Positions 9,701 through 40,185 of a DNA stretch of 59,210 bases are shown in pieces. The notes under the pieces were generated by a model that searched no databases, had not been told where the DNA came from, and saw only the letters and a list, made by a program, of their open reading frames with translations. Both the position numbers and the translations under genes were made by a program. The DNA lies in IMG/VR virus record IMGVR_UViG_3300035670_000236, positions 1-59,210 of that record; one strand, written 5' to 3'. The stretch comes from a virus. Taxonomy: Duplodnaviria; Caudoviricetes. The first letter of the stretch is position 1. The number at the start of each line of letters is the position of its first letter.

Positions 9701-11620
9701 GGCTTTATGGGATTCACCACAAGAGGTATGGGTGAACTCATGGGTATGGGTAGAGGACAGGGAATGAGAACGCCTGACTTTAATCCAAACGCAAATCGAT
9801 ATCAAATAGCGCAAAGCACGGCAGACTTGTCGATGAACCAAGGCAACCGATATGGTCTTGTTGGTTCAGAAGTTGCATCGGATATTTCAGATACATCATA
9901 CATAACCAGACAAAGTTATGAATTGACTGCCCAAGGTCAACGCATGTCGCTGAATGCTATGAATGCAAGCACTCAGCAAAACGTTTCTGTCACTTCACAA
10001 GCAGACCAAAATAACTTAGCAGGTATGGATGCACAAACTAGTGCAATTGTAACTGCAATCAATTCTCAGCCTCGCGCAACTGGCGGAGGCTCTATGGGAG
10101 GAAGTTTTGGGGGAGATTTTGCGAGTTTCTTAGGAAACATGGCAGTCTCTTTTGTTGCGAATAAAATCACTTCTAAAATTAAGAACCCATATTTAAGAGC
10201 AGCAGCAAACTTTGGTATTCAAGCAGCAGCGCAGAAATACGTTCTTCCTACCATTTTAGGAACTGGAGGAGGTGCAGCAGCCGGCGGAGCAGCAGGAAGT
10301 GCTGGAGTAGCCGGTGCAGCAGGCGCAGGATTCTTAGGTTCTCTTGCAATGCTGCCTAGTGCATTCTCAGCAGCAGGCGGATTTGCAGGACTAGGCACAG
10401 CAGTAGGTCGTTCATTTGGATTCTTTGGTGGACCAGCAGCAGGCGCAACATTCTCTCAATACGCAGCAAGTGTTTTAGGTGGGTCTGGATTTGCAACAGG
10501 CGCCAATTTCTTCTCAGGTATGTCTGCTAATTCTTTTGGTGCTGCCGGTTCTGCATTTGGAACAGCAGGTCAGTTTGGTTATGCAGTAAACCAAGCACTA
10601 CCTTACACAGCAGCAATTATGCAATTGTTCCAAGGAGATATTAAGGGTGCAGCAACAACAGCAGCACTCACATACATTGGTACCGCAATTGGTGGTCCTA
10701 TTGGCGGATTCATCGGCTCTGTTATTGGTAGCGTGTTTGGTAAGAAAAAGAAAGCGCCACCACCAAAAATTATTGACAAAGTTCTTGTTCTTGCTGATAG
10801 AGACATTGCTAAGAAAGCGACCGTTCGTGAAGAAAATAATCCGAGTGATGGTCAGAAACAACTGATTGATGCATTCTTGAATACCGCATTCAATACTGCA
10901 ATGTCAATTTATCAAGTAAGTAAGATAAATCCTCCGTTCAATGCGATTTATATTTCTATTCGTAACGCCAATCTAAAAATGGCATTACCAAGCAACTATA
11001 GTGGAGGCACCATTACAGATGGTTGGGTGTATGAAGTAACTATGGAAGAGAAAAAATCTTCTCAGTTCTATATGCTTGAAATTATGCGTAAGATTCGTGA
11101 AGTTTATAAAGCACAATCTCAAGACCCCGAATATCTGAAGAAAATTGATGAAGGCTATGCTCTTGTTGCAAGTAAGAGTGCGAGTCAACTTGCAGGTGGA
11201 TTAATTGGTAATCTGAAATATGGAAAGTATGCTCTTGACCCATCCGCACAAGGAAGAATGGGAAGCGCAACTAGACAAGCGGTGCAGTCATATGTTTTAG
11301 GTACTCAATCAGGAAGAACAACAGTAGGAACAGGAACGTCAGGAGTTACAGTATCAACACAGACAACTGAAACTGATGCGGGTTCACTAACACCAACTAC
11401 AACATCAGGAACTTCAGTCAGAATTACCCCAACAACAAGCGGTGCTGCTGGCGCAGGCACCTCAGGAACTGGTAATCAGAATGTTAATGTTGTTACAGAT
11501 AATTCTAGAACAACAAATGAAGGCTCTACGATTAACACAACATATCTGAATACAACTTCAGGTGGCGATATTTACGGTCGTTCTGGAATGAATACTGGTA
11601 TGTCATTTGTTGCTGCGTAA
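6707..11620 (+). CDS. Tape measure-like protein with an embedded lysozyme-like domain
   Basis: 1637 aa, Gly/Ala-rich and helical, directly after gp26/gp51; RNNNPGNLR...FARFATPEAG...FISKYAPKSENNT..Y domain. Confidence 0.75.
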   Translation: MAQLGSYAQALGQMASDAAVGGLKGLAQGAKYAAMREMPALTGAMAFAKDVRGRAAKIQDSKTAAAEERQANATEKLVDQQARNNVISLDMARQLRQMNQSIRAQSSLLGYQVQDQKRQMQFAEESERESRNYQERLLKALEKLTTGQGAGAGSPGGGSGGGSEGGFFDSILDWLGTAALGALAGKALGGRGGRGGRGGKLAGLAGAAGSAILGARGLRGLFGARGAARPPSNVIPFPGGGRGGMGGAANDAAFKRPGFWSRLGGKVGSKIGIGALGKRAIPYLGWGLLAYDIYDVVSYMMEDQQSGGMGGGPGGGQGFNAFGPIGALYAATLYKNRNRTAQRPRLEQRPTPYASEGYTLAPNAGRARPGSTTAPRGSRTPGVRQQPGSRPETPATGNNPGMNIPNAPRRNQPLSVRNNNPGNLRYSANLTRPGGVLEGATEGEGGFARFATPEAGMAAMRKQIVLDTQRRGMTLRQFISKYAPKSENNTDKYISDVSRMTGIKPDDRITPDQIPALQRAMISIEGDSRAMAYYYPTTQPVGAEKPAGSTTEAVSAARGPQSSTSYASRGYALGSNARPPGAPTETVSPPTGPVESLPTITVTGRRIPSVERGYRPGMVIPSTGNPRADAYRRHRLIEAGVVPVAATTPSGTAVRGPEEPVPVHDAKATETLEDIKKSQGKVEKETRGLGQNTQQAARLYARRLRSTRRVLTPEEEADEYLKKAQQGFLNAFDRTLTKAFKDFGNNFLKSVGYAPGGRPVTAQEASRTGYAGMQLGKALDLDKKTASALEKVIGKEYSRMLAPAVSQLGKAYLNSLAIGIGQGLFSGTVGAQGAKALTGQIIGNFAKGNKQIAMEQLLFGLTGIASGPETIAQSYGFRSAAEGIGYMAEVFAAKSTNAIQGLFGWEDRTRAQQVRDPTTGRLYTPGEGFTGGVAMPDMERVGYGGMRLPQQPTTTLVGKQDNLLSTGARTLNGVLLVSVTNAGDFASEEDKLKHTLEQGFMGFTTRGMGELMGMGRGQGMRTPDFNPNANRYQIAQSTADLSMNQGNRYGLVGSEVASDISDTSYITRQSYELTAQGQRMSLNAMNASTQQNVSVTSQADQNNLAGMDAQTSAIVTAINSQPRATGGGSMGGSFGGDFASFLGNMAVSFVANKITSKIKNPYLRAAANFGIQAAAQKYVLPTILGTGGGAAAGGAAGSAGVAGAAGAGFLGSLAMLPSAFSAAGGFAGLGTAVGRSFGFFGGPAAGATFSQYAASVLGGSGFATGANFFSGMSANSFGAAGSAFGTAGQFGYAVNQALPYTAAIMQLFQGDIKGAATTAALTYIGTAIGGPIGGFIGSVIGSVFGKKKKAPPPKIIDKVLVLADRDIAKKATVREENNPSDGQKQLIDAFLNTAFNTAMSIYQVSKINPPFNAIYISIRNANLKMALPSNYSGGTITDGWVYEVTMEEKKSSQFYMLEIMRKIREVYKAQSQDPEYLKKIDEGYALVASKSASQLAGGLIGNLKYGKYALDPSAQGRMGSATRQAVQSYVLGTQSGRTTVGTGTSGVTVSTQTTETDAGSLTPTTTSGTSVRITPTTSGAAGAGTSGTGNQNVNVVTDNSRTTNEGSTINTTYLNTTSGGDIYGRSGMNTGMSFVAA

Positions 11621-17491: not shown

Positions 17492-17574
17492 AATTTTCTC
17501 CTAGTCAATTGAGCGAGATTGCTCACTTTTATCTATAGAGTTTCAATCAGTTTTAAACTAAGTCAAATCATGAA

Positions 17575-17883
17575 TAAGTGCTAGTTGATTCTGTTGCCAA
17601 GTTCAACTAGCAAAACTCCGGTCAGCGTTTAGGCTGCCAGTGCAAATCTTTCATCGTTTGCATTTACTTCGTTTGCTTGATTTACGGTCATCGCCTACCG
17701 TGCTGTCCACTCTGTTACTCTTTGCCCTGTCGAAACCAGGTCCGGCCCATCATAAGCATACTCGGAAGATTTATTTACCGCTGACTATTACTCTTCCCCA
17801 GCGTCACTCTAGTATGCTTATGGTGGACCGGGCGGGAATCGAACCCGCGTCCAGAACACTTTTCTCTTTGCTTCATACAGCAA
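17575..17883 (-). ncRNA. ssrA: Two-piece (circularly permuted) tmRNA; outer ends approximate
   Basis: Acceptor piece with GGTTCGATTCC T-arm and CCGGTCCACCA end (17821); paired intervening segment; coding piece starting GGGCCGG (17748, G3:U70); tag ANDERFALAA* at 17661-17629. Confidence 0.92.
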
Positions 17884-17888
17884 TATTT

Positions 17889-18665
17889 TTATTTATATCG
17901 CTTAACCGTATCTATAATTGCATCCTGCACATTTCGCATCTTATAGACAGACTCCAGTTTCTTGGTACTCAATACACAATTACTTCTTGGTGCTTTTGTG
18001 ATTGCCCTAAACTCATCATCAGTCATCCATTCTTTGTTTAGTGCAAGTGCATCAGAAAGTTTTCTTGTGGTTGTGCTGCCAATATTTGTTACATTGTAAA
18101 TACCATACGCAGGTTTTTTAACAATGAAATGGGTAACACAATCTGCTAGGTCTTCTACTTGAGTTACACTATTTTCTTTGTCGATAAGTTTATCATAAGC
18201 CTCTAGTTTTGTCAAGAGATTTTTCTGAGTTCTATCTGGTCCGAATGGCATACGAATACGGAACAAATAAGACTTGTTCATGTATGGTTTGAGTAGCGTC
18301 TGTTCAAGTCCTTTACATGCACTATAGAATGATGCATTGTTGAAGGTAAAGTTTGGGGCATCTTCTTCCGTAAATTCTTTTTCGTATCCTGTATATACGC
18401 ATCCACTAGAGATATGGATGATTGGTCCGTTAAAATTTTTTTCCAGTTCAAGTGGATATAGAATATTACCTTGAACACATTCGTCTTTGTGTATTTCACA
18501 CGCATCAACGTTTGGTACTCCTGTGTATCCTGCGGCATTAATTATAAACTTAACGCCTCTTGGAATTACATCTTTGTGACTAAGCCAAAGATACTTAAAG
18601 TCATCACTTGACAACTTCTTCGCAATATACTGTCCAATATAACCGTGACCAATCAGTCCAATCAT
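17889..18665 (-). CDS. NAD-dependent sugar epimerase/reductase (RmlD-like)
   Basis: GHGYIG, INAAGYTG.PNVDACE, ISSGCVY, YSACK, PRSNCVL. Confidence 0.85.
   Translation of the reverse strand: MIGLIGHGYIGQYIAKKLSSDDFKYLWLSHKDVIPRGVKFIINAAGYTGVPNVDACEIHKDECVQGNILYPLELEKNFNGPIIHISSGCVYTGYEKEFTEEDAPNFTFNNASFYSACKGLEQTLLKPYMNKSYLFRIRMPFGPDRTQKNLLTKLEAYDKLIDKENSVTQVEDLADCVTHFIVKKPAYGIYNVTNIGSTTTRKLSDALALNKEWMTDDEFRAITKAPRSNCVLSTKKLESVYKMRNVQDAIIDTVKRYK
17890..17897 (-). promoter_or_regulatory. T4 late promoter TATAAATA upstream of tmRNA
   Basis: Exact consensus just upstream of the acceptor piece. Confidence 0.7.
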
Positions 18666-31081: not shown

Positions 31082-31819
31082 TCACCTCATGATTTGAATT
31101 TGTTGACTCACAACTTTCCTTCCCAGAAAAGGTAAATCCTTTACCATCTGATTAAATTCTATTTTACTATAGGATGGTCGGAATGTCAAGTTCTCTTCGG
31201 TAAATACGAATACAATCAGTTCGTTAGATTGACTCTTGCCGATTGGCAACTTTGCCTCAAGTTTATAATTGTTTGGGGGTAAACTAAATTCGATGTTCGG
31301 CTTGAATACTTTGCCTTGCCACACAAGTTTATATGTATCATCGATAAAGTTGTATGCCGCTATGCTTCCTGCGCGATTCGAAACACCTGCTACACGAAAA
31401 CGTTCACCGTGTTTGAATTCTTGTTTAGACTGAATAGATAGTTGAATAGAATTCGTAATCTTTTCTACATCAGCATCAAGGTGTACCATGCACACCGAAT
31501 GCTTTTGTTCTGGATAGACTAACGTTTCTAATTTGTTTATCTTTTTGATTTGACCGCTTGTTTCAGAATGAAATGCTCTGAGTGTAGAACATGTTTCATC
31601 TCTACACACTTGATTGGTAGTTGATTCAATGAATTCACCAACAAAGTTTTCAATTGCGTTTTGCTTTGCTCTTTCTTCTGCAATTGAACATGCTACATTC
31701 TGTGCAGTTTCAGGACCAAAGCGATACTCACCTTCGCCAATGACTGACGAATGTGCAATATTTGCACATACTAAGATTGCTGCCGCAATTGAAGTTTTTG
31801 CGATTCGCGTTCTAACCAT
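31082..31819 (-). CDS. Secreted hypothetical protein
   Basis: Signal-peptide-like N-terminus; next to lipoproteins. Confidence 0.6.
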   Translation of the reverse strand: MVRTRIAKTSIAAAILVCANIAHSSVIGEGEYRFGPETAQNVACSIAEERAKQNAIENFVGEFIESTTNQVCRDETCSTLRAFHSETSGQIKKINKLETLVYPEQKHSVCMVHLDADVEKITNSIQLSIQSKQEFKHGERFRVAGVSNRAGSIAAYNFIDDTYKLVWQGKVFKPNIEFSLPPNNYKLEAKLPIGKSQSNELIVFVFTEENLTFRPSYSKIEFNQMVKDLPFLGRKVVSQQIQIMR

Positions 31820-34633: not shown

Positions 34634-34700
34634 CATTTTGAAACACACTATCTCTACTTAAAGTTTATCAGCAAGCCGACACACAGTATGCTTCAAAATG
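34634..34700 (-). other. Long processing-like stem (RNase III-type)
   Basis: CATTTTGAAGCATACT...AGTGTGTTTCAAAATG. Confidence 0.5.
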
Positions 34701-34729
34701 AGGACTCTTTCGAATCCTCACCGTTCTAT

Positions 34730-36151
34730 TTAAAGAACTTTGTAGCGTTCATCCATGATGGTTTTCATCATGACTGCTACAGGAGTGAAGTTATCGATAT
34801 CTCCCGATAGGATAGGCTTCACAATCGCTGGCGAGAAGCCAGACACTAGCGCAGTACCACTCTTATCGAACTTGACTGGCGCGTTGCCGTAAGATGCGTT
34901 CAGGTTCCAGAACACCACTTGTGGTACTTTGTAACCGGCTGCAACATACTTGCGTTCAATCATTTCGATTGCAGAATTGTCATGCTTTACGCATTGGTCA
35001 AACTGCATATCGGACAGAATCAATACCATTGCTGGCATTTCTTCTTGTGGTACGTTACCCTTAACCGCAACATCAAGAATCTTGTTGAATGCTGCGTGAA
35101 GGTTAGTGTTCATCTCCCACTTAGATTTAACCATTTGGTCAATCTTCTGGTTGATGTTACCCTTCATGTGTACCAACTCTGGCTTGTGCGAGAAAGTTAG
35201 GAACGTGTCCTTGAACTTTCCAGTGTTCTTGTCTGCAAGATACAGTCCCAGAGAGACTGCAACTTCAAGGCAAGAAAGTTTTGTGTTCTTTCCTGCTGGA
35301 CAAGTCATAGAGCCAGATACGTCAACAAGAGGAAGGATGTTTGCATCACCAACATAGTTAGGCAATGCTTCCCATTGCTTTTGAATCAAGTCCATTTCTG
35401 TCTTGTCAAAAGAAACGCCATAAGAGTTGATGCGACCTTTTAGCACATCGTATGGATATGCAACAGATGCATTTACTTTTACAGTCTTGTCTTCACCCTT
35501 TACAAGCGAAGCAACATACTCGGCATACTTTTGAGTATTACGGTTGAATGCTTTCTTGTAACGAGCCGATGCTACAGAAGGCACATGGCTGAAGTTGATG
35601 GAATCCCATTCTTTAGCGCACATGTCTTGTTCTACAACCTTAGTCAATTCGACTAGGGACTTACGATAGAACTTAGGCGACATTCCGAAGAATTCGCGAA
35701 TCTCAACAGCAAGTTTACCTTGACGAGGAGTCCACTTTGCAGCCAAGCCATTACGCTGGCGCAGAGCATCACCAAGCATGGTAAATGCTTCAGACTTTAG
35801 TTCCTTGTCATTGAAGACAAAGATATCGTCCCAACGTCCCAATTCAGGAACTTTACGAAGCAAAGCCTTTGCTGCTTCTTTATCGTTCTTTTCTAGATAT
35901 ACTAGAATGTCACGAAACAATTGGCGTTCACCAGCACCACCACGGGCATCACGAAGCCATGCCGCTACGCGCAAAGCAAGGTCGCGGTTCTCTGCCATTG
36001 CAGCAGAGAATGCTGGAACGATGTTCTTACCGCGGGACGCACCAGCGTTATAGAACAGGTCAACTACAGCGTTGGCAGTTGACTTACGAGCCTTCATACC
36101 ATTTGCGGTACGAGCCTCTTGATTTACTACTGCATTTACAAAAGTGTTCAT
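34730..36151 (-). CDS. DUF2828 protein (Ro60/TROVE-like helical domain + vWA)
   Basis: RDARGGAGER..FR, GRWDD, AAKWTPR, DVSGSM (MIDAS), LSDMQFD, VFWNL, SGFS. Confidence 0.85.
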   Translation of the reverse strand: MNTFVNAVVNQEARTANGMKARKSTANAVVDLFYNAGASRGKNIVPAFSAAMAENRDLALRVAAWLRDARGGAGERQLFRDILVYLEKNDKEAAKALLRKVPELGRWDDIFVFNDKELKSEAFTMLGDALRQRNGLAAKWTPRQGKLAVEIREFFGMSPKFYRKSLVELTKVVEQDMCAKEWDSINFSHVPSVASARYKKAFNRNTQKYAEYVASLVKGEDKTVKVNASVAYPYDVLKGRINSYGVSFDKTEMDLIQKQWEALPNYVGDANILPLVDVSGSMTCPAGKNTKLSCLEVAVSLGLYLADKNTGKFKDTFLTFSHKPELVHMKGNINQKIDQMVKSKWEMNTNLHAAFNKILDVAVKGNVPQEEMPAMVLILSDMQFDQCVKHDNSAIEMIERKYVAAGYKVPQVVFWNLNASYGNAPVKFDKSGTALVSGFSPAIVKPILSGDIDNFTPVAVMMKTIMDERYKVL

Positions 36152-36165
36152 AGTATTTCCTTTTC

Positions 36166-36229
36166 AACAGGTTAATTTTTGCGTTTACAATTACAAGTTG
36201 TATGCTTTAGATGTTGCTGAACTTAACCT
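36166..36229 (-). ncRNA. Y-RNA-like CAGCAA element 1 (displays Thr-TGT anticodon stem-loop)
   Basis: AGGTTAA-GTT-CAGCAA...TACAA-CTTGTAA-TTGTA...TTAACCT-GTT. Confidence 0.65.
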
Positions 36230-36236
36230 AAAAAAC

Positions 36237-36356
36237 AACAGAATAGTTTTCTTCTTTTTGTTTTATATGAGAACTCGAAACTCATATCGTCCGGCGAACC
36301 AGACCGTCTTGATACGGCAATGAAGCCGTTAAGTAAATTGTTGCTGAACCTATTCT
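36237..36356 (-). ncRNA. Y-RNA-like CAGCAA element 2
   Basis: AGAATAG-GTT-CAGCAA...three hairpins...CTATTCT-GTT. Confidence 0.65.
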
Positions 36357-36370
36357 TTCATCAAAAAAAT

Positions 36371-36594
36371 AACGGGATGATCGGGTTGGTGTTAAACTGG
36401 TTCTTAAACCTCGGTGCCCCTTTCGGCGTATCCCCACCGTAATCAAATGGATTACCATTATTTCGTAGAATTATCTACATCAGATTTAATTCAAGTTTAC
36501 TCTCTAGCCGTTTAAAAATTACCTCTTACGAGGGTCCTCCTGTATCACGGCACTCTATAGTCATGTGATTTTTAGAGTTTGCTGTAGTCATCCC
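36371..36594 (-). ncRNA. Y-RNA-like CAGCAA element 3 (large, multi-hairpin)
   Basis: GGGATGA-CTA-CAGCAA...TCATCCC-GTT. Confidence 0.65.
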
Positions 36595-36616
36595 TTTTTC
36601 ATCATCAATACTGTGT

Positions 36617-36645
36617 ATTGTAGCAGAATTTTCTGCTCTTGTCAA
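36617..36645 (-). promoter_or_regulatory. Sigma70 promoter for elements 3-2-1 and DUF2828
   Basis: TTGACA-17-TACAAT with TG extension. Confidence 0.8.
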
Positions 36646-36647
36646 GT

Positions 36648-36737
36648 TGGCGGAAGCGGTGAGATTCGAACTCACGGAACATTTCTGTTCGTCTGTTTTC
36701 AAGACAGGTGCAATAAACCGGGCTCTGCCACGCTTCC
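36648..36737 (-). tRNA. tRNA-Ser (TGA)
   Basis: Class II cloverleaf, GCCA. Confidence 0.92.
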
Positions 36738-36757
36738 TTATTGCTTTAAAAATTAAT

Positions 36758-36831
36758 TGGCATCCCGCGAGGGACTCGAACCCCCACCAACAGTTTTGGA
36801 GACTGGTATGCTGCCATTACACTAGCGAGAT
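36758..36831 (-). tRNA. tRNA-Trp (CCA)
   Basis: Cloverleaf, CCA. Confidence 0.9.
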
Positions 36832-36836
36832 ATATT

Positions 36837-36912
36837 TGGCGCGCCCGGAGGGACTCGAACCCCCATGAGACACTTTAGAAGAGTGTTGCCTTATCCTTTA
36901 GACTACGGGCGC
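36837..36912 (-). tRNA. tRNA-Arg (TCT)
   Basis: Cloverleaf, CCA. Confidence 0.9.
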
Positions 36913-36918
36913 ATAAAT

Positions 36919-36994
36919 TGGAGCGGATGGTGGGAGTCGAACCCATCTATTGAGGTTTGGAAGACCGCCGTGTAACCACAAACACTTCACCCGC
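36919..36994 (-). tRNA. tRNA-Gly (TCC)
   Basis: Cloverleaf, TCCA. Confidence 0.88.
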
Positions 36995-37001
36995 ATATTA
37001 G

Positions 37002-37190
37002 TTAATCGTTATTAATCTTTTCTTTATCTTCAGGTAACATATTGCCTTGAAGAACTTCTCCATCTTCGTTTGTTTTTTCTTTGTCTAAATCACGACCAAA
37101 GATTGCATCCCATCGTCTTTCATACTCATCTTGAGTAACGCTAAAAGGTCTAGGAGAACTTCCTTTACCACCATGCCATTTATTGCCCAT
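37002..37190 (-). CDS. Small conserved phage protein (GGKGSSPRP...WDAIF)
   Basis: ORF with SD. Confidence 0.7.
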   Translation of the reverse strand: MGNKWHGGKGSSPRPFSVTQDEYERRWDAIFGRDLDKEKTNEDGEVLQGNMLPEDKEKINND

Positions 37191-37743
37191 TCAGAACTCC
37201 TACACTATGTTGAGGATTATTGGGAGAATGGGGAAGATCGAAAACAAATGTTATTCTATCTTCTTTACCATTGCTAAATGCCCAATGAGGTTTTTTGTTG
37301 TCGAACCAGAAAAACATTCCTGGTTTAATTTGTTTTGTTTCTCCACCTACGTTATACAAGTATTCTCCCTGTAAACATAGATGGTATCTGTCTCTAGTCA
37401 AATAATATGAACCATCATCAATATGTTCACCAACACTATCACCAACGTAAAGTCTGAAAAACGCAGCCCTTGAAGTTTGTTCGATGTTATAACTTCTCAA
37501 AAATTTATGTATCTCTGTATACTTATCATGCAAAGGTGTATTTCTTTGCAACTCAGAATTCTTAGGACTCATTTCAGGACTTGGAACTACTGCCATGACA
37601 AGAGGCATGAAGCCATATGGATTTGTTTCTCCTGCAATGTTTGGATACTCTTTAATTGCATTCCAATCATTAGGATTGTCCAATACTTGTTGAAGTATAT
37701 TTTTCACTTCAACATTGTCGTTGATGACAATAAAATTACTCAT
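37180..37743 (-). CDS. Asp/Asn beta-hydroxylase-like 2OG-Fe(II) oxygenase
   Basis: HID.G.YY..RDRYH, WFDNK.PH, RI..VFD. Confidence 0.85.
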   Translation of the reverse strand: MSNFIVINDNVEVKNILQQVLDNPNDWNAIKEYPNIAGETNPYGFMPLVMAVVPSPEMSPKNSELQRNTPLHDKYTEIHKFLRSYNIEQTSRAAFFRLYVGDSVGEHIDDGSYYLTRDRYHLCLQGEYLYNVGGETKQIKPGMFFWFDNKKPHWAFSNGKEDRITFVFDLPHSPNNPQHSVGVLNGQ

Positions 37744-38402
37744 CGTGGATACTCCAATAATTCCATATCACTCATGTCTTGATAGTTATATCTATCATAG
37801 TAATCATGATTTGACATTCCAATTGGCATAGCATTCATAGCAACAACAATACGATAAGAGCAATGTGTTGGTGAAGTTGAATGAGTAGCCCAAGCAGGAA
37901 ACATCACTAATGTTCCAGGCTTGAATTTAAATTCTTCTTGTGTTTTCAATAAAGGTTCTGAATCAAAATCATGCGGTGGTTGAATAACATATTTTTCGAT
38001 ATCGCTGTTATGAAATACTGTACCACTTGCTCCACCATCAGCATCGAAAAGATGAAATGATCCACCTAAAAAACTATTATGATGAGAATGTTTGTGATGA
38101 AATCCACCTTTACGTTGTCTTGTTGCCCACATGCTAGTGATACAACAATCCTTTTGATATCCCATCAGTTGCATTACACTCTCTGTGCATGAATGAAAAA
38201 ACTCAGTCAATTTTGATACGTTCTTATCTTTATGTAGATTTGCTCTAGTAATTTGCAAACCATTCTTTTCTCTTTCAGAGAGATAAAGATGCTCCTGTGC
38301 AAAGTATCGAACAAGATATTCTTCATCTTGCTTGAAATCTGGATATTCAAATCTCCACACGGGAGTAAAAAACAATTTATGAAACTCTACAGGATTCAAC
38401 AT
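37740..38402 (-). CDS. Putative 2OG-Fe(II) oxygenase
   Basis: FFTPVW, HSHHNS, G.LVMFPAW..H, R..AMN; start trimmed because the track start lies in tRNA-Pro. Confidence 0.8.
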   Translation of the reverse strand: MLNPVEFHKLFFTPVWRFEYPDFKQDEEYLVRYFAQEHLYLSEREKNGLQITRANLHKDKNVSKLTEFFHSCTESVMQLMGYQKDCCITSMWATRQRKGGFHHKHSHHNSFLGGSFHLFDADGGASGTVFHNSDIEKYVIQPPHDFDSEPLLKTQEEFKFKPGTLVMFPAWATHSTSPTHCSYRIVVAMNAMPIGMSNHDYYDRYNYQDMSDMELLEYPR

Positions 38403-38421
38403 CACAAACTCCCTACGATAT

Positions 38422-38499
38422 TGGTCCGGGTGGAGAGATTCGAACTCCCGACCCTCTGCTCCCAAAGCAGATGCGCTAACCAGACTGCGCTACACCCGG
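38422..38499 (-). tRNA. tRNA-Pro (TGG)
   Basis: Cloverleaf, CCA. Confidence 0.92.
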
Positions 38500-38506
38500 A
38501 ATGTTT

Positions 38507-38581
38507 TGGTGCATCGTGAGAGGATTGAACTCCCGACATTCGCCTTGTAAGGGCGCTACTCTACCGCTGAGTTAACGATGC
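38507..38581 (-). tRNA. tRNA-Val (TAC)
   Basis: Cloverleaf, CCA. Confidence 0.9.
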
Positions 38582-38589
38582 GAATTAAA

Positions 38590-38663
38590 TGGTGCCCCCA
38601 CACAGAATCGAACTGCGGATTGATGCTTACAAGGCAACTGTTATACCATTTAACTATGAGGGC
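38590..38663 (-). tRNA. tRNA-Thr (TGT)
   Basis: Cloverleaf, CCA. Confidence 0.9.
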
Positions 38664-38674
38664 ATTATCTTACT

Positions 38675-38703
38675 ATTATATATTCTTTAAAACTGAATGT
38701 CAA
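38675..38703 (-). promoter_or_regulatory. Internal sigma70 promoter in the tRNA cluster
   Basis: TTGACA...TATAAT. Confidence 0.7.
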
Positions 38704-38712
38704 GTAATTTTT

Positions 38713-38790
38713 TGGAGGTGCGAGTGAGATTCGAACTCACGATACAAGAGTTTTGCAGGCTCCGCCGTTTGACCGCTCCGGCATCGCACC
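38713..38790 (-). tRNA. tRNA-Cys (GCA)
   Basis: Cloverleaf, TCCA. Confidence 0.88.
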
Positions 38791-38797
38791 ATGTAAT

Positions 38798-38871
38798 TGG
38801 CAGAGGGTAAAGGAATCGAACCTTTGACAACGGAATCAAAATCCGTGGTTATACCATTTAACTAACCCCCA
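38798..38871 (-). tRNA. tRNA-Gln (TTG)
   Basis: Cloverleaf, GCCA. Confidence 0.9.
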
Positions 38872-38878
38872 ACAAATT

Positions 38879-38953
38879 TGGCACCCAATGAGAGAATCAA
38901 ACTCCCAACTCTTCGTTCGTAGCAAAGTGTGATATTCATTTCACCAATCGGGT
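38879..38953 (-). tRNA. tRNA-Arg (ACG), variant T-loop
   Basis: Cloverleaf with TTTGATT T-loop, CCA. Confidence 0.8.
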
Positions 38954-38960
38954 ATTATAT

Positions 38961-39077
38961 AACAGGATACGTTTTTAGTGATCTACCATTGATCTATTTT
39001 TCCCTAGTGGAAAAAGTTGGAGTCGAACCAACAACCTCTCGCTTAGAAGGCGAAATATTTTTTGCTGAATGTATCCT
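38961..39077 (-). ncRNA. Y-RNA-like CAGCAA element 4 containing a circularly permuted tRNA-Arg(TCT)
   Basis: AGGATAC-ATT-CAGCAA, anticodon arm, T-arm, loop-closed acceptor stem, D-arm, GTATCCT-GTT. Confidence 0.8.
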
Positions 39078-39082
39078 AAAAC

Positions 39083-39159
39083 TGGTGCCCAAGGCGGGAC
39101 TCGAACCCGCAAGATTTAGTTTCTAAGACTAACATGTATACCAATTCCATCACCTGGGC
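39083..39159 (-). tRNA. tRNA-Leu (TAG), short variable loop
   Basis: Cloverleaf, CCA. Confidence 0.88.
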
Positions 39160-39239
39160 TTATAAATTTCTTTTAAATGTAATGTATAGAAGAATCATGA
39201 TAACAAAAACTACGATTGCCCCATTTGATTTCTCCTTAA

Positions 39240-39435
39240 ATTATTACGGCTACGTTTTCTAGGTCGCCCCGTAATGAGTTGACCTCCCTGTCACCACGTT
39301 TATATTTTCCTGAGCCGTTATGGTTCGGCACAGCGGTTCGGACTCCCTAGAATGGGCACTCTTCTTTACGGTTCACCGCCCCCGACTCTATAACGCCGAG
39401 TAGGCGACACAAATCACGTTTTGTGCTGACGAGAC
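39240..39435 (-). ncRNA. Putative structured ncRNA, unknown family
   Basis: GC-rich spacer with no long ORF between tRNAs, several stems. Confidence 0.4.
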
Positions 39436-39510
39436 TGGTACCGGATATTGGGTTCGAACCAATGACTTATCGCTTATCAAGCGATTACTCTACCGCTGAG
39501 TTAATCCGGT
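39436..39510 (-). tRNA. tRNA-Ile (GAT)
   Basis: Cloverleaf, CCA. Confidence 0.9.
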
Positions 39511-39554
39511 GAAAATTTACTTTGTTATTTGTCGAAAATTTACTTTGTTATTTG
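39511..39554. repeat. 21-bp direct repeat x2
   Basis: gaaaatttactttgttatttg at 39511 and 39534. Confidence 0.9.
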
Positions 39555-39628
39555 GTGCCGCCTGTCGGAATCGAACCAACTTCATCGGATTTTCAGTCCG
39601 CTGCAATGACCACACTTGCTCAAGCGAC
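39553..39628 (-). tRNA. tRNA-Phe (GAA)
   Basis: Cloverleaf, CCA. Confidence 0.85.
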
Positions 39629-39629
39629 A

Positions 39630-39705
39630 TGGGGTGTTCTATGAGGATCGAACTCATACTTTCTCGGTCACAGCGAGAAGTGCAGACCACTACACTAAGA
39701 ACACC
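39630..39705 (-). tRNA. tRNA-His (GTG)
   Basis: G-1:C73, CCA. Confidence 0.9.
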
Positions 39706-39710
39706 ATAGT

Positions 39711-39785
39711 TGGTGGTGATAAGTGGTATCGATCCACTCTCCTCGGCTTATGAAACCGGTACGCATCCGTCTACGTCATATCACC
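39711..39785 (-). tRNA. tRNA-Met (CAT), variant T-loop
   Basis: Cloverleaf, ATCGATA T-loop, CCA. Confidence 0.75.
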
Positions 39786-39825
39786 GATAACCTTACATAT
39801 ATTGAAACAATCAACATATGTAAGG

Positions 39826-40043
39826 TGTCTTGCTACTAATCCTCATTAGCCCAAGACTGAGTGGTTACCCTGTCCATCTAGATAGTGATATAGTCCAATC
39901 TAGCGAAAACTGTGAATCTCTCAAGTCGCTTCTGAAATGAAGCCTTGGGGTAAACGGGGCTACCGTCACTTTCATCACTACCCTGCTCTTGTGGTTTGGC
40001 AATTACCCACTTTCGGTTTACCGACAAAGTGTAAACGGAGGAT
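39826..40043 (-). ncRNA. Putative structured ncRNA, unknown family
   Basis: Multi-hairpin spacer between tRNA-Asn and tRNA-Met. Confidence 0.4.
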
Positions 40044-40118
40044 TGGCTCCGGTGGCTGGGATCGAACCAACGACCAATTGATTAACAGTCAACTGCACTA
40101 CCGCTGTGCTACACCGGA
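40044..40118 (-). tRNA. tRNA-Asn (GTT)
   Basis: Cloverleaf, GCCA. Confidence 0.92.
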
Positions 40119-40126
40119 ATAAAAAT

Positions 40127-40185
40127 AACAGGATACGCTTTTTGCTTTATTTCCAGTAAAGTTTTTTAATTGCTGAAAGTATCCT
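40127..40185 (-). ncRNA. Y-RNA-like CAGCAA element 5 (displays Ser-GGA anticodon stem-loop)
   Basis: AGGATAC-TTT-CAGCAA...CTTTA-CTGGAAA-TAAAG...GTATCCT-GTT. Confidence 0.7.

Follow-up and report, generated by a model that had tools for sequence, protein, structure and literature searches.

We analysed a 59,210-nucleotide stretch of phage DNA (positions 1 to 59,210 of IMG/VR record IMGVR_UViG_3300035670_000236; hereafter the window), a 59-kb fragment of a large freshwater phage in a record estimated to be 36% complete, and found that a locus on its minus strand probably encodes a ribonucleoprotein of the Ro60/Y-RNA type in which both the protein family and the RNA handle are different. The protein is a DUF2828/DUF7788 open reading frame (ORF) at 34730-36151 (-) within the tRNA island of the window, whose minus strand carries a transfer-messenger RNA (tmRNA) gene and about 29 tRNA genes. 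The RNAs are five elements (E1 to E5) in which a closing stem adjoins the hexamer CAGCAA. E3, E2 and E1 occupy the interval between a putative promoter (36645-36617, -) and the ATG of the protein gene at 36151, 14 nt separating the 3' end of E1 from this ATG. E4 and E5 lie within the tRNA array, each beginning GTTTT (5 bases) past the 3' end of a tRNA and ending 7-8 bases before the next one. The features of the locus are as follows.

36617-36645, minus strand: putative sigma-70-type promoter (TTGACA-17-TACAAT, TG before the -10, 11 of 12 consensus matches), heading an RNA-RNA-RNA-protein operon.
36371-36594, minus strand: handle RNA E3, 224 nt, GGGATGA-CTA-CAGCAA ... TCATCCC-GTT.
36237-36356, minus strand: handle RNA E2, 120 nt, AGAATAG-GTT-CAGCAA ... 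CTATTCT-GTT.
36166-36229, minus strand: handle RNA E1, 64 nt, AGGTTAA-GTT-CAGCAA ... TTAACCT-GTT.
34730-36151, minus strand: gene for the predicted Ro60-fold protein, 473 aa, with a DUF2828 N-terminal helical-repeat part and a DUF7788 von Willebrand factor A (vWA) domain.
34695-34719, minus strand: terminator-like hairpin read from the sequence (8-bp stem, GAAA loop, ATTTT), 11 nt past the stop codon.
38961-39077, minus strand: handle RNA E4, 117 nt, AGGATAC-ATT-CAGCAA ... GTATCCT-GTT.
40127-40185, minus strand: handle RNA E5, 59 nt, AGGATAC-TTT-CAGCAA ... GTATCCT-GTT.

The hairpin at 34695-34719 was absent from a consensus terminator scan, whose rule needs five T.

An earlier sequence-only reading of this DNA had proposed five minus-strand elements of one architecture, three in tandem between a sigma-70 promoter and the DUF2828 start and two more among tRNAs. 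Reading of the minus strand together with an exact pattern scan returned all five at exactly the positions listed above, and the promoter, the tandem arrangement and the placement of E4 and E5 in the tRNA array were confirmed as well. The order is the same in all five elements: after the 5' strand of a 7-bp Watson-Crick terminal stem come a 3-nt linker, CAGCAA, 38-198 nt of cargo, the 3' stem strand and GTT. The stems had been said to differ in sequence and yet remain complementary; four stem sequences were found in the five elements, AGGATAC/GTATCCT being used twice (E4 and E5). A looser scan, which allowed linkers of 2-4 nt and any tail, gave eight matches on the minus strand and two on the plus strand, and among these only the five elements combined a 3-nt linker with a GTT tail; three further minus-strand matches were registers of a single palindrome (31646-31793). 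Across 100 shuffles of the window that preserved dinucleotides, the mean count of the strict pattern was 1.05 (maximum 6); with the GTT tail added, 5 copies were observed against 0.06 expected (mean of the 100 shuffles, maximum 1). Folding gave z-scores of -3.07 for E2, -2.67 for E4 and -2.47 for E3, the last with a minimum free energy of -56.7 kcal/mol. Pairing of CAGCAA with the 3' GUUGUUUU tail was considered and discarded on grounds of geometry and because distant phages lack the U-run.

The same RNA family was found with the gene in close relatives. In 64 IMG/VR loci whose proteins share 56-91% identity with that of the window, a pattern scan detected 188 elements on the gene strand versus 8 on the opposite strand, and at least one handle element was present in 59 of the 64 loci. 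Removal of duplicates left 139 distinct elements, in length classes of about 53-69, 82-128 and 137-226 nt. The second stem pair is G:C in 139/139 elements, position 5 is T in 128 and the linker follows N-T-(T/A), and ...C-T-G-T is present in 123 elements; the G after the stem was set by the scan design, and the next-but-one base is T in 128 elements. The 139 elements use many stem variants, the outer stem positions varying freely and with compensation. In addition, an internal 5-bp hairpin that had no part in the selection was paired in 84% of cells across 51 sequences, with changes on both sides at 5/5 pairs, and shifting its register abolished the covariation signal. In the relatives, a Watson-Crick-only scan found 2 elements inside the gene and none downstream, compared with 161 upstream. 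An element ended at most 150 nt from the start codon in 48 of the 61 loci with enough upstream DNA, and 13-23 nt before it in 25 of those loci. The conserved module is a closing stem of 6-7 bp with a G:C second pair, N-U-W, an unpaired CAGCAA, the 3' strand and then a G.

Three pattern matches inside the relatives' protein gene (GGATTCT-CAC-CAGCAA) were judged coding coincidences and were excluded; of the 54 short elements left after this, 51 (alignment A1) were used to build a covariance model (R1). R1 detected four of the five window elements, scoring 69.4 bits for E5, 65.3 bits for E1, 39.8 bits for E4 and 33.6 bits (expectation value, E, 6.6e-6) for E2, and missed the 224-nt E3 under default filters. 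The stem class of E3 was found in 8 related loci with a weakly conserved interior, and an alignment of 9 homologues supported the terminal stem and a single weak helix only. Relaxed pattern scans and R1 gave no convincing sixth copy in the window, and two R1 matches there (E 0.5-0.9) were discarded as noise.

The 473-aa product matched DUF2828 (PF11443; 8e-21, 74.8 bits, cut-off 29) and DUF7788 (PF25043; 4e-50, 170.6 bits, cut-off 27.1) in Pfam, and phrog_850, annotated as 'RNA-binding protein', in PHROG (1.7e-141). An AlphaFold2 model made from a 48-sequence alignment reached a mean predicted local distance difference test score of 90.5 and a predicted template modelling (TM) score of 0.89. 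When this model was compared with the PDB by Foldseek, the four best matches were, in order, 1yvr (Xenopus Ro60; E 5.5e-7, TM 0.61), 9nfa (human Ro60 in complex), 2nvo (Deinococcus Rsr) and 9nen (human Ro60), with E 5.5e-7 to 1e-5 and TM 0.38-0.61 over the four; the matches after them were isolated vWA domains at E of about 0.02 and above. Furthermore, a profile of the family compared with PDB sequences had Ro60/TROVE chains as its top four matches, including the TROVE protein of a Thermus phage. These matches are weak (E 0.012-0.023) and their alignments are restricted to the junction into the MIDAS (metal ion-dependent adhesion site) motif, the MIDAS of the family aligning with the MIDAS region of Ro60. 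The MIDAS residues D277, S279, S281, T349 and D381 are intact and invariant across the 48 sequences. The DUF2828/DUF7788 protein is therefore predicted to have the architecture of Ro60, with a helical-repeat ring and a vWA domain that carries a MIDAS. The family is large: 6,191 representatives were found at E <= 0.001 in a 50%-identity library, 701 of 50,697 phage records contain a member, many mycobacteriophages among them, and a search for longer proteins returned 7 homologues from plants, fungi and algae. In one IMG/VR record (G005, the record behind locus L132) the DUF2828 gene, at 114278-116802, is present as two frames about 1.1 kb apart that cover profile positions 4-132 and 117-462, a layout that points to the insertion of an intron, intein or homing-endonuclease gene.

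In their variable part the RNAs derive from tRNA, and this part takes the form of an anticodon-arm mimic, a YrlA-like T/acceptor/D body or a whole permuted tRNA. The cargo of E1 is a 5-bp hairpin whose 7-nt loop reads CUUGUAA, an anticodon-arm mimic displaying 'UGU', and that of E5 is a further anticodon-arm mimic, a 5-bp hairpin with the loop CUGGAAA. E2 carries three hairpins, the third with a T-loop-like UUCGA loop. In the predicted fold of the E4 cargo four hairpins follow each other, namely an anticodon arm (loop CUUCUAA), a T arm (GUUGG-UUCGACU-CCAAC), a closed 7-bp acceptor-like hairpin and a D arm (GAUC-AAUGGUA-GAUC); this cargo corresponds to a tRNA with a circular permutation at the D/anticodon junction. 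Its segment 39008-39066 passed the Rfam tRNA threshold (30.5 versus 29 bits), the sole gathering-level match in the five elements. The 54 short elements of the relatives gave 55 predicted cargo hairpin loops; 31 of them are 7 nt long, and 26 of these 31 have the form Y-U-NNN-R-N on 5-bp stems; CUUGUAA is the commonest of these, others being CUUUUAA, CUGGAAA, CUGUUAA and CUGCAAA. In dimensions and sequence pattern these hairpins match the anticodon arm of a tRNA.

Co-occurrence of gene and handle extended beyond the close relatives. Whole genomes of named phages, whose proteins are 33-41% identical to that of the window by tblastn, were scanned with R1 (Pseudomonas phage Milchi and Ochrobactrum phage vB_OspM_OC were met only as short DNA matches). 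Milchi gave four R1 matches, with CAGCAC replacing CAGCAA, and vB_OspM_OC also gave four (E <= 3.5e-5). Listeria phage A511 has three tandem elements between a promoter-like TTGACA and gp57, Campylobacter phage CP30A has two elements immediately upstream of the gene, and mycobacteriophage Wigglewiggle has three right behind gene 55 and then a terminator, with a tRNA-like cargo in the middle element. In Enterococcus phage EFDG1, three elements lie immediately upstream of the gene, with R1 E of 0.08 and a clear pattern on reading. In Felix O1 the tRNA island just downstream of ORF86, the DUF2828 gene of this phage, has four elements in its spacers; these were found by pattern, the R1 matches being weak (E 0.03-0.4). 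KVP40 gave a single strong R1 match (E 6e-9). Aeh1, chosen as a negative control, proved to have the gene and two strong RNA matches. In A511, CP30A, EFDG1, Wigglewiggle and Felix O1, whose genomes are 76-148 kb, the RNAs are at most about 1.3 kb away from the gene. Altogether, 10 of 10 genomes with the gene (the window and nine named phages), from hosts among the Proteobacteria, Firmicutes, Actinobacteria and Campylobacterota, carry handle RNAs, versus none of four genomes without it (T4, T5, SPO1 and Bxz1; 579 kb in total) at R1 E <= 1. Bxz1 encodes a canonical TROVE protein with a sub-threshold YrlA-like match just upstream and is without a handle RNA, so the CAGCAA handle goes with DUF2828 and not with Ro60 generally. 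With the 59 of 64 related loci, these counts support the proposal of the sequence-only reading that the gene has its own Y-like RNAs, and the motif co-occurred with the gene in DUF2828 genomes versus controls.

Two of these phages showed further elements. In KVP40 (L065), a second handle RNA of 250 nt was found by reading at 9789-10038 (-), about 3.1 kb upstream of the gene, with the GACATT stem that is also present in the leader of the DUF2828 mRNA and a strong terminator behind it. In EFDG1 (L082; 1850-2270), a conserved extra hairpin precedes each handle RNA (GTTCC/GCTCT, about 16 nt, GGAAC/AGAGC, then ATAAAGAA), which may be a clade-specific processing or binding element.

In the reverse test, IMG/VR was scanned by the handle pattern without reference to the protein, and at least 120 stretches were obtained, with 80 loci among the matches listed. 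The gene was contained within the stretch examined in 21 of these 80 listed loci. Nine long contigs seeded by the RNA were without the gene in the first stretch; seven of the nine carry it elsewhere, and the remaining two are 40% and 71% complete. Of the RNA-seeded records, the four that are at least 90% complete all have the gene.

The locus resembles Ro60/Rsr with YrlA/YrlB, Yrn1 or phiLo Yrl1/Yrl2 in that a protein with a ring and a vWA domain lies beside one to several small RNAs of the same strand, an arrangement also found in phages for Ro60 and its Y RNAs. As in Y RNAs, the paired RNA ends close a stem that adjoins a conserved unpaired motif, and the remainder is modular and often mimics tRNA. 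In the available text of Chen 2014 (PMC4201824) and of the phiLo Ro60 paper (PMC12135203), Ro60 binds the RNA at a conserved helix that its paired ends form, and partners such as PNPase are tethered through the other module. Unlike Ro60, the window protein belongs to Pfam DUF2828/DUF7788 and leaves the TROVE model unmatched, and the DUF2828 family is far larger in phages. Where Y RNAs have a GNCGAA/CGAA bulged helix, the handle here is stem-NUW-CAGCAA with a 3' G; also unlike Y RNAs, many handle RNAs are just 53-69 nt long with an anticodon-arm mimic, and they occur up to five or more per genome, often in tRNA operons.

The RNAs had been put forward as undescribed, and the handle indeed stayed below the gathering score of every Rfam family. 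A gathering-score scan of the whole window matched tRNAs and the tmRNA only, and E-value scans of the elements gave only sub-threshold YrlA and Dicty_Class_I matches, with no ribozyme or riboswitch family seen. A literature search, whose coverage left out most subscription journals and supplements, found no paper describing handle RNAs. The handle RNAs and their pairing with DUF2828 thus appear to be undescribed.

We propose that the ring protein would bind the handle (stem, CAGCAA and 3' G-U overhang) as Ro60 binds the stem of a Y RNA, a contact suggested by co-occurrence. E3, E2 and E1 would be made from their own promoter on one transcript with the protein, and E4 and E5, being so closely flanked by tRNAs, would be freed from the tRNA polycistron by ordinary tRNA processing. 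The displayed cargo would offer tRNA look-alikes that recruit or sequester tRNA-recognising proteins, which are the likely clients because the cargoes are tRNA parts. Candidate clients are anticodon nucleases and other tRNA-directed defences, tRNA repair or modification enzymes, and exonucleases. During infection the targets would most likely be host enzymes of tRNA-directed defence or decay, and the particle would serve as a counter-defence or RNA-protection device. In addition, the protein can probably restrain its own translation through a handle beside the ribosome-binding site. The leaders of KVP40 and Vibrio phage 6E35.1a contain a cargo-less handle, GACATT-(T/A)TA-CAGCAA-loop-AATGTC, with a GAGG Shine-Dalgarno sequence in the loop and the AUG in the 3' strand; through this leader handle, or through the handle that abuts the ribosome-binding site in the window clade, the protein could repress its own translation.

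A lead for the counter-defence function comes from Felixounavirus Bas63. In the available text of a 2024 preprint (PMC11482910), gp130 of this phage is described as Ro60-like, is encoded directly upstream of tRNA genes and counters the Ppl defence; its authors propose that some of the Bas63 'tRNA genes' are Y RNAs, and those RNAs are left unidentified in that text. We infer from taxonomy and gene position that gp130 is a DUF2828 protein. The DUF2828 gene of Felix O1 is in the equivalent position to gp130 as placed in that text, with four handle RNAs in the tRNA spacers, and these four are good candidates for the RNAs guessed at there.

Several observations weigh against a Ro60-like particle or narrow what can be claimed for it. 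First, the Pfam TROVE model (PF05731) gave no match to the protein even at E <= 10, and the vWA_Ro60 model scored 17.2 bits, under its cut-off of 27.7. The sequence-only reading had called the protein a Ro60 analogue; the predicted fold, with Ro60/Rsr as the four best PDB matches, is in favour of this, but as TROVE is unmatched the protein is a Ro60-fold relative outside the current family definition and not simply an analogue or orthologue. Second, the protein-RNA contact is drawn from co-occurrence. The distance between the RNAs and the gene can be large (about 50 kb for vB_OspM_OC, about 11 kb for Aeh1), and since the RNAs of large phages reside in tRNA islands, part of the linkage could be shared island residence. 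R1 was trained on one clade and is weak on Felix O1 and EFDG1, so both of these cases rest on pattern reading. Third, the stem of the KVP40-type leader handle is without compensatory change, because its 3' strand is coding, and the leader handle is absent from Aeh1, phiAS5 and XbC2. Fourth, gp130 alone restored plaques of T7 on the Ppl strain, either from a plasmid or inserted in T7, according to the available text of the same preprint (PMC11482910), so the RNAs may modulate or extend the function of the protein and not be required for it. Finally, eight metatranscriptome runs contain 5-8% of the sampled window words, and four of them were examined as contigs. These contigs are mostly over tRNAs and gene pieces from relatives, with a few covering E4 and tRNA-Leu (38960-39203) or parts of E1-E3 and of E5; they reveal neither transcription nor RNA ends and were not used as evidence. 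Taken together, the evidence supports the interpretation of the locus as a Ro60-like ribonucleoprotein.

The handle also resembles the Class I RNAs of Dictyostelia. The Rfam model Dicty_Class_I_RNA (RF01414) aligned E5 end to end (1-56 of 56) at 32.3 bits, against a gathering score of 41.5, with a G-started 6-bp stem, CAGCAA and a 3' C-U-G in the alignment. Elements of KVP40 and of two relatives scored 27-35 bits (27.4-34.7), all below 41.5, and 2 of 11 short elements from five relatives matched at E <= 1. As described in the available text of Kjellin et al. 2021 (PMC7919456), Class I RNAs are about 60 nt long, with an invariant 5' G that pairs with the C in a CUGU at the 3' end, a motif of 11 unpaired nucleotides beside the 5' stem strand and a variable rest, and are found only in Dictyostelia. 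The phage handle agrees with this structural description point by point. Handle RNAs share with Class I RNAs a size of about 60 nt, a short terminal stem with a 5' G, an adjoining unpaired motif whose last six bases are CAGCAA (GaUcuC-CUUA-CAGCAA in the Rfam consensus), an interior that is variable and A/U-rich, and a 3' C-U-G-U; unlike them, the handle has a linker that is one base shorter. The context also differs: Class I RNAs are eukaryotic and probably products of RNA polymerase III, with the Dictyostelium upstream sequence element (DUSE) about 60 nt upstream and a T-run terminator, whereas the phage RNAs belong to an operon with a sigma-70-type promoter or to a tRNA polycistron, with a T-run behind most elements. 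The single proven direct binder of a Class I RNA is an RNA recognition motif protein (Rnp1A/CIBP), in contrast to the ring protein proposed here. The likeness is real, sits below threshold and may reflect homology or convergence. An extended version, which we put forward as a speculation that is rather unlikely to hold, is that DUF2828 protein and CAGCAA-handle RNA form an ancient particle of phages and eukaryotes. Class I RNAs would then be its amoebal handle RNAs, the plant, fungal and algal DUF2828 proteins would have partner RNAs, and the phage form would be a programmable display of tRNA mimics that disarms tRNA-directed defences. The candidate amoebal homologue would be DDB_G0281243, a protein of no known function that is among four pulled down with DdR-21, one of the Class I RNAs, in the available text of the preprint version of PMC7919456.

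We considered three other explanations of the locus. The RNAs might be free-standing tRNA decoys or fragment mimics directed against anticodon nucleases, with a handle that only shields their ends or is recognised by a host factor, and the DUF2828 protein might act separately, for example through binding of host RNAs or proteins by its vWA domain. The anticodon-loop signature in 26 of 55 cargo loops agrees with such decoys, as does the finding, within the available text of the Bas63 preprint, that gp130 counters Ppl without its RNAs. An invariant single-stranded hexamer beside a covarying stem is, on the other hand, the signature of a specific reader, and DUF2828 was the only conserved partner found across phyla; moreover, the bare KVP40-type leader handle stands in the protein's own mRNA without any decoy cargo. 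We therefore regard independent decoys as improbable.

Alternatively, the elements could serve to process or punctuate phage tRNA operons, for instance as RNase E, P or Z sites or as hairpins that stabilise the RNA; they would then meet DUF2828 only through shared tRNA islands and be unbound by the protein. Their distribution fits in part: E4 and E5 sit between tRNAs, each right behind a tRNA 3' end and GTTTT, the T-rich flanks around the elements are conserved, and RNAs are found in the tRNA clusters of Felix O1, KVP40, Milchi and Aeh1. Against this, the tRNA arrays of T4, T5, SPO1 and Bxz1 yielded no R1 match, the three elements of Wigglewiggle lie behind the gene in a 6.4-kb stretch with no tRNA annotated, and those of A511 lie between a promoter-like TTGACA and the gene start. 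The handle is invariant although the hosts span four phyla with different RNases, and the cargo is conserved and structured beyond the stem alone. A role in punctuation alone thus seems very improbable.

The YrlA model (RF02553, threshold 69) gave its best window score, 30.7 bits, on E4 (model positions 24-84 of 114), the only window element that meets the YrlA-type tRNA-like domain of T arm, acceptor-like stem and D arm. Mid-size elements scored 33-45 bits, two EFDG1 element bodies 43-45 bits among them, and the best score anywhere was 44.9 bits (EFDG1). The Rsr-binding motif near the YrlA 5' end, GNCGAAN0-1G in the available text of Chen 2014 (PMC4201824), was absent from E1, E2, E4 and E5 and from the handle. 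A fit to it, GCCGAAAG, occurs once in E3 at 36427-36420 (-), position 168, distant from the handle, and may be due to chance. That a divergent Ro60 orthologue here simply has five ordinary YrlA-type Y RNAs, with nothing new but the annotation, is suggested by the predicted Ro60 fold, by the 30-45-bit matches of E4 and mid-size relatives and by the labels 'Ro-like RNA binding protein' and 'putative Ro sixty-related protein' that depositors gave to homologues, yet is scarcely credible because every YrlA match is under 69 bits and aligns the tRNA-like body only, without the terminal stems, because the handle is without the Rsr-binding motif as that text gives it, because Bxz1 with its true TROVE protein is without a handle RNA, and because the short elements are without any tRNA-like body. 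The reading that we prefer remains a Ro60/Y-RNA-type particle with its own protein family and its own handle.

Other features of the window were also recorded. The tmRNA gene lies at 17538-17913 (-), encodes the tag peptide ANDERFALAA and scored 140.9 bits against the permuted tmRNA model and 131.2 bits against the beta-proteobacterial tmRNA model of Rfam. In the tRNA array, 38675-38703 (-) is a 12/12 match to a sigma-70 promoter (TTGACA, 17 nt, TATAAT) right before tRNA-Thr(UGU); the array therefore has internal promoters. A tRNA at 39714-39785 (-) scored 45.5 bits in Rfam and was not called by ARAGORN. Two stretches of the array, 39160-39435 and 39786-40043 (-), of about 260-275 nt each, are without a tRNA, a handle or a convincing ORF and may be further non-coding RNAs; their sole Rfam match is a weak one to freshwater-2 (21 bits), and a contig from an RNA library (depth 82) spans 39871-40096. 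Between tRNA blocks, 37002-38465 (-) encodes a 2-oxoglutarate-Fe(II) oxygenase (PF13759, PHROG 81), an Asp/Asn beta-hydroxylase-like cupin and a 62-aa ORF, and these genes may be linked to the modification of tRNA or other RNA.

Among the phage protein families that are still uncharacterised, DUF2828/DUF7788 is one of the larger, with members in model phages such as Felix O1, A511 and KVP40. A defined RNA ligand would turn a 'Ro-like protein, function unknown' into a testable particle, with a handle that can be mutated and cargoes that point to tRNA biology. The handle RNAs would also account for many of the 'structured spacers' and odd pseudo-tRNAs seen in tRNA islands of phages, and they offer a mechanism to test for the published Ppl counter-defence phenotype. 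If the likeness to Class I RNAs reflects homology, the handle would provide the first mechanistic lead for an amoebal RNA class that is 20 years old.

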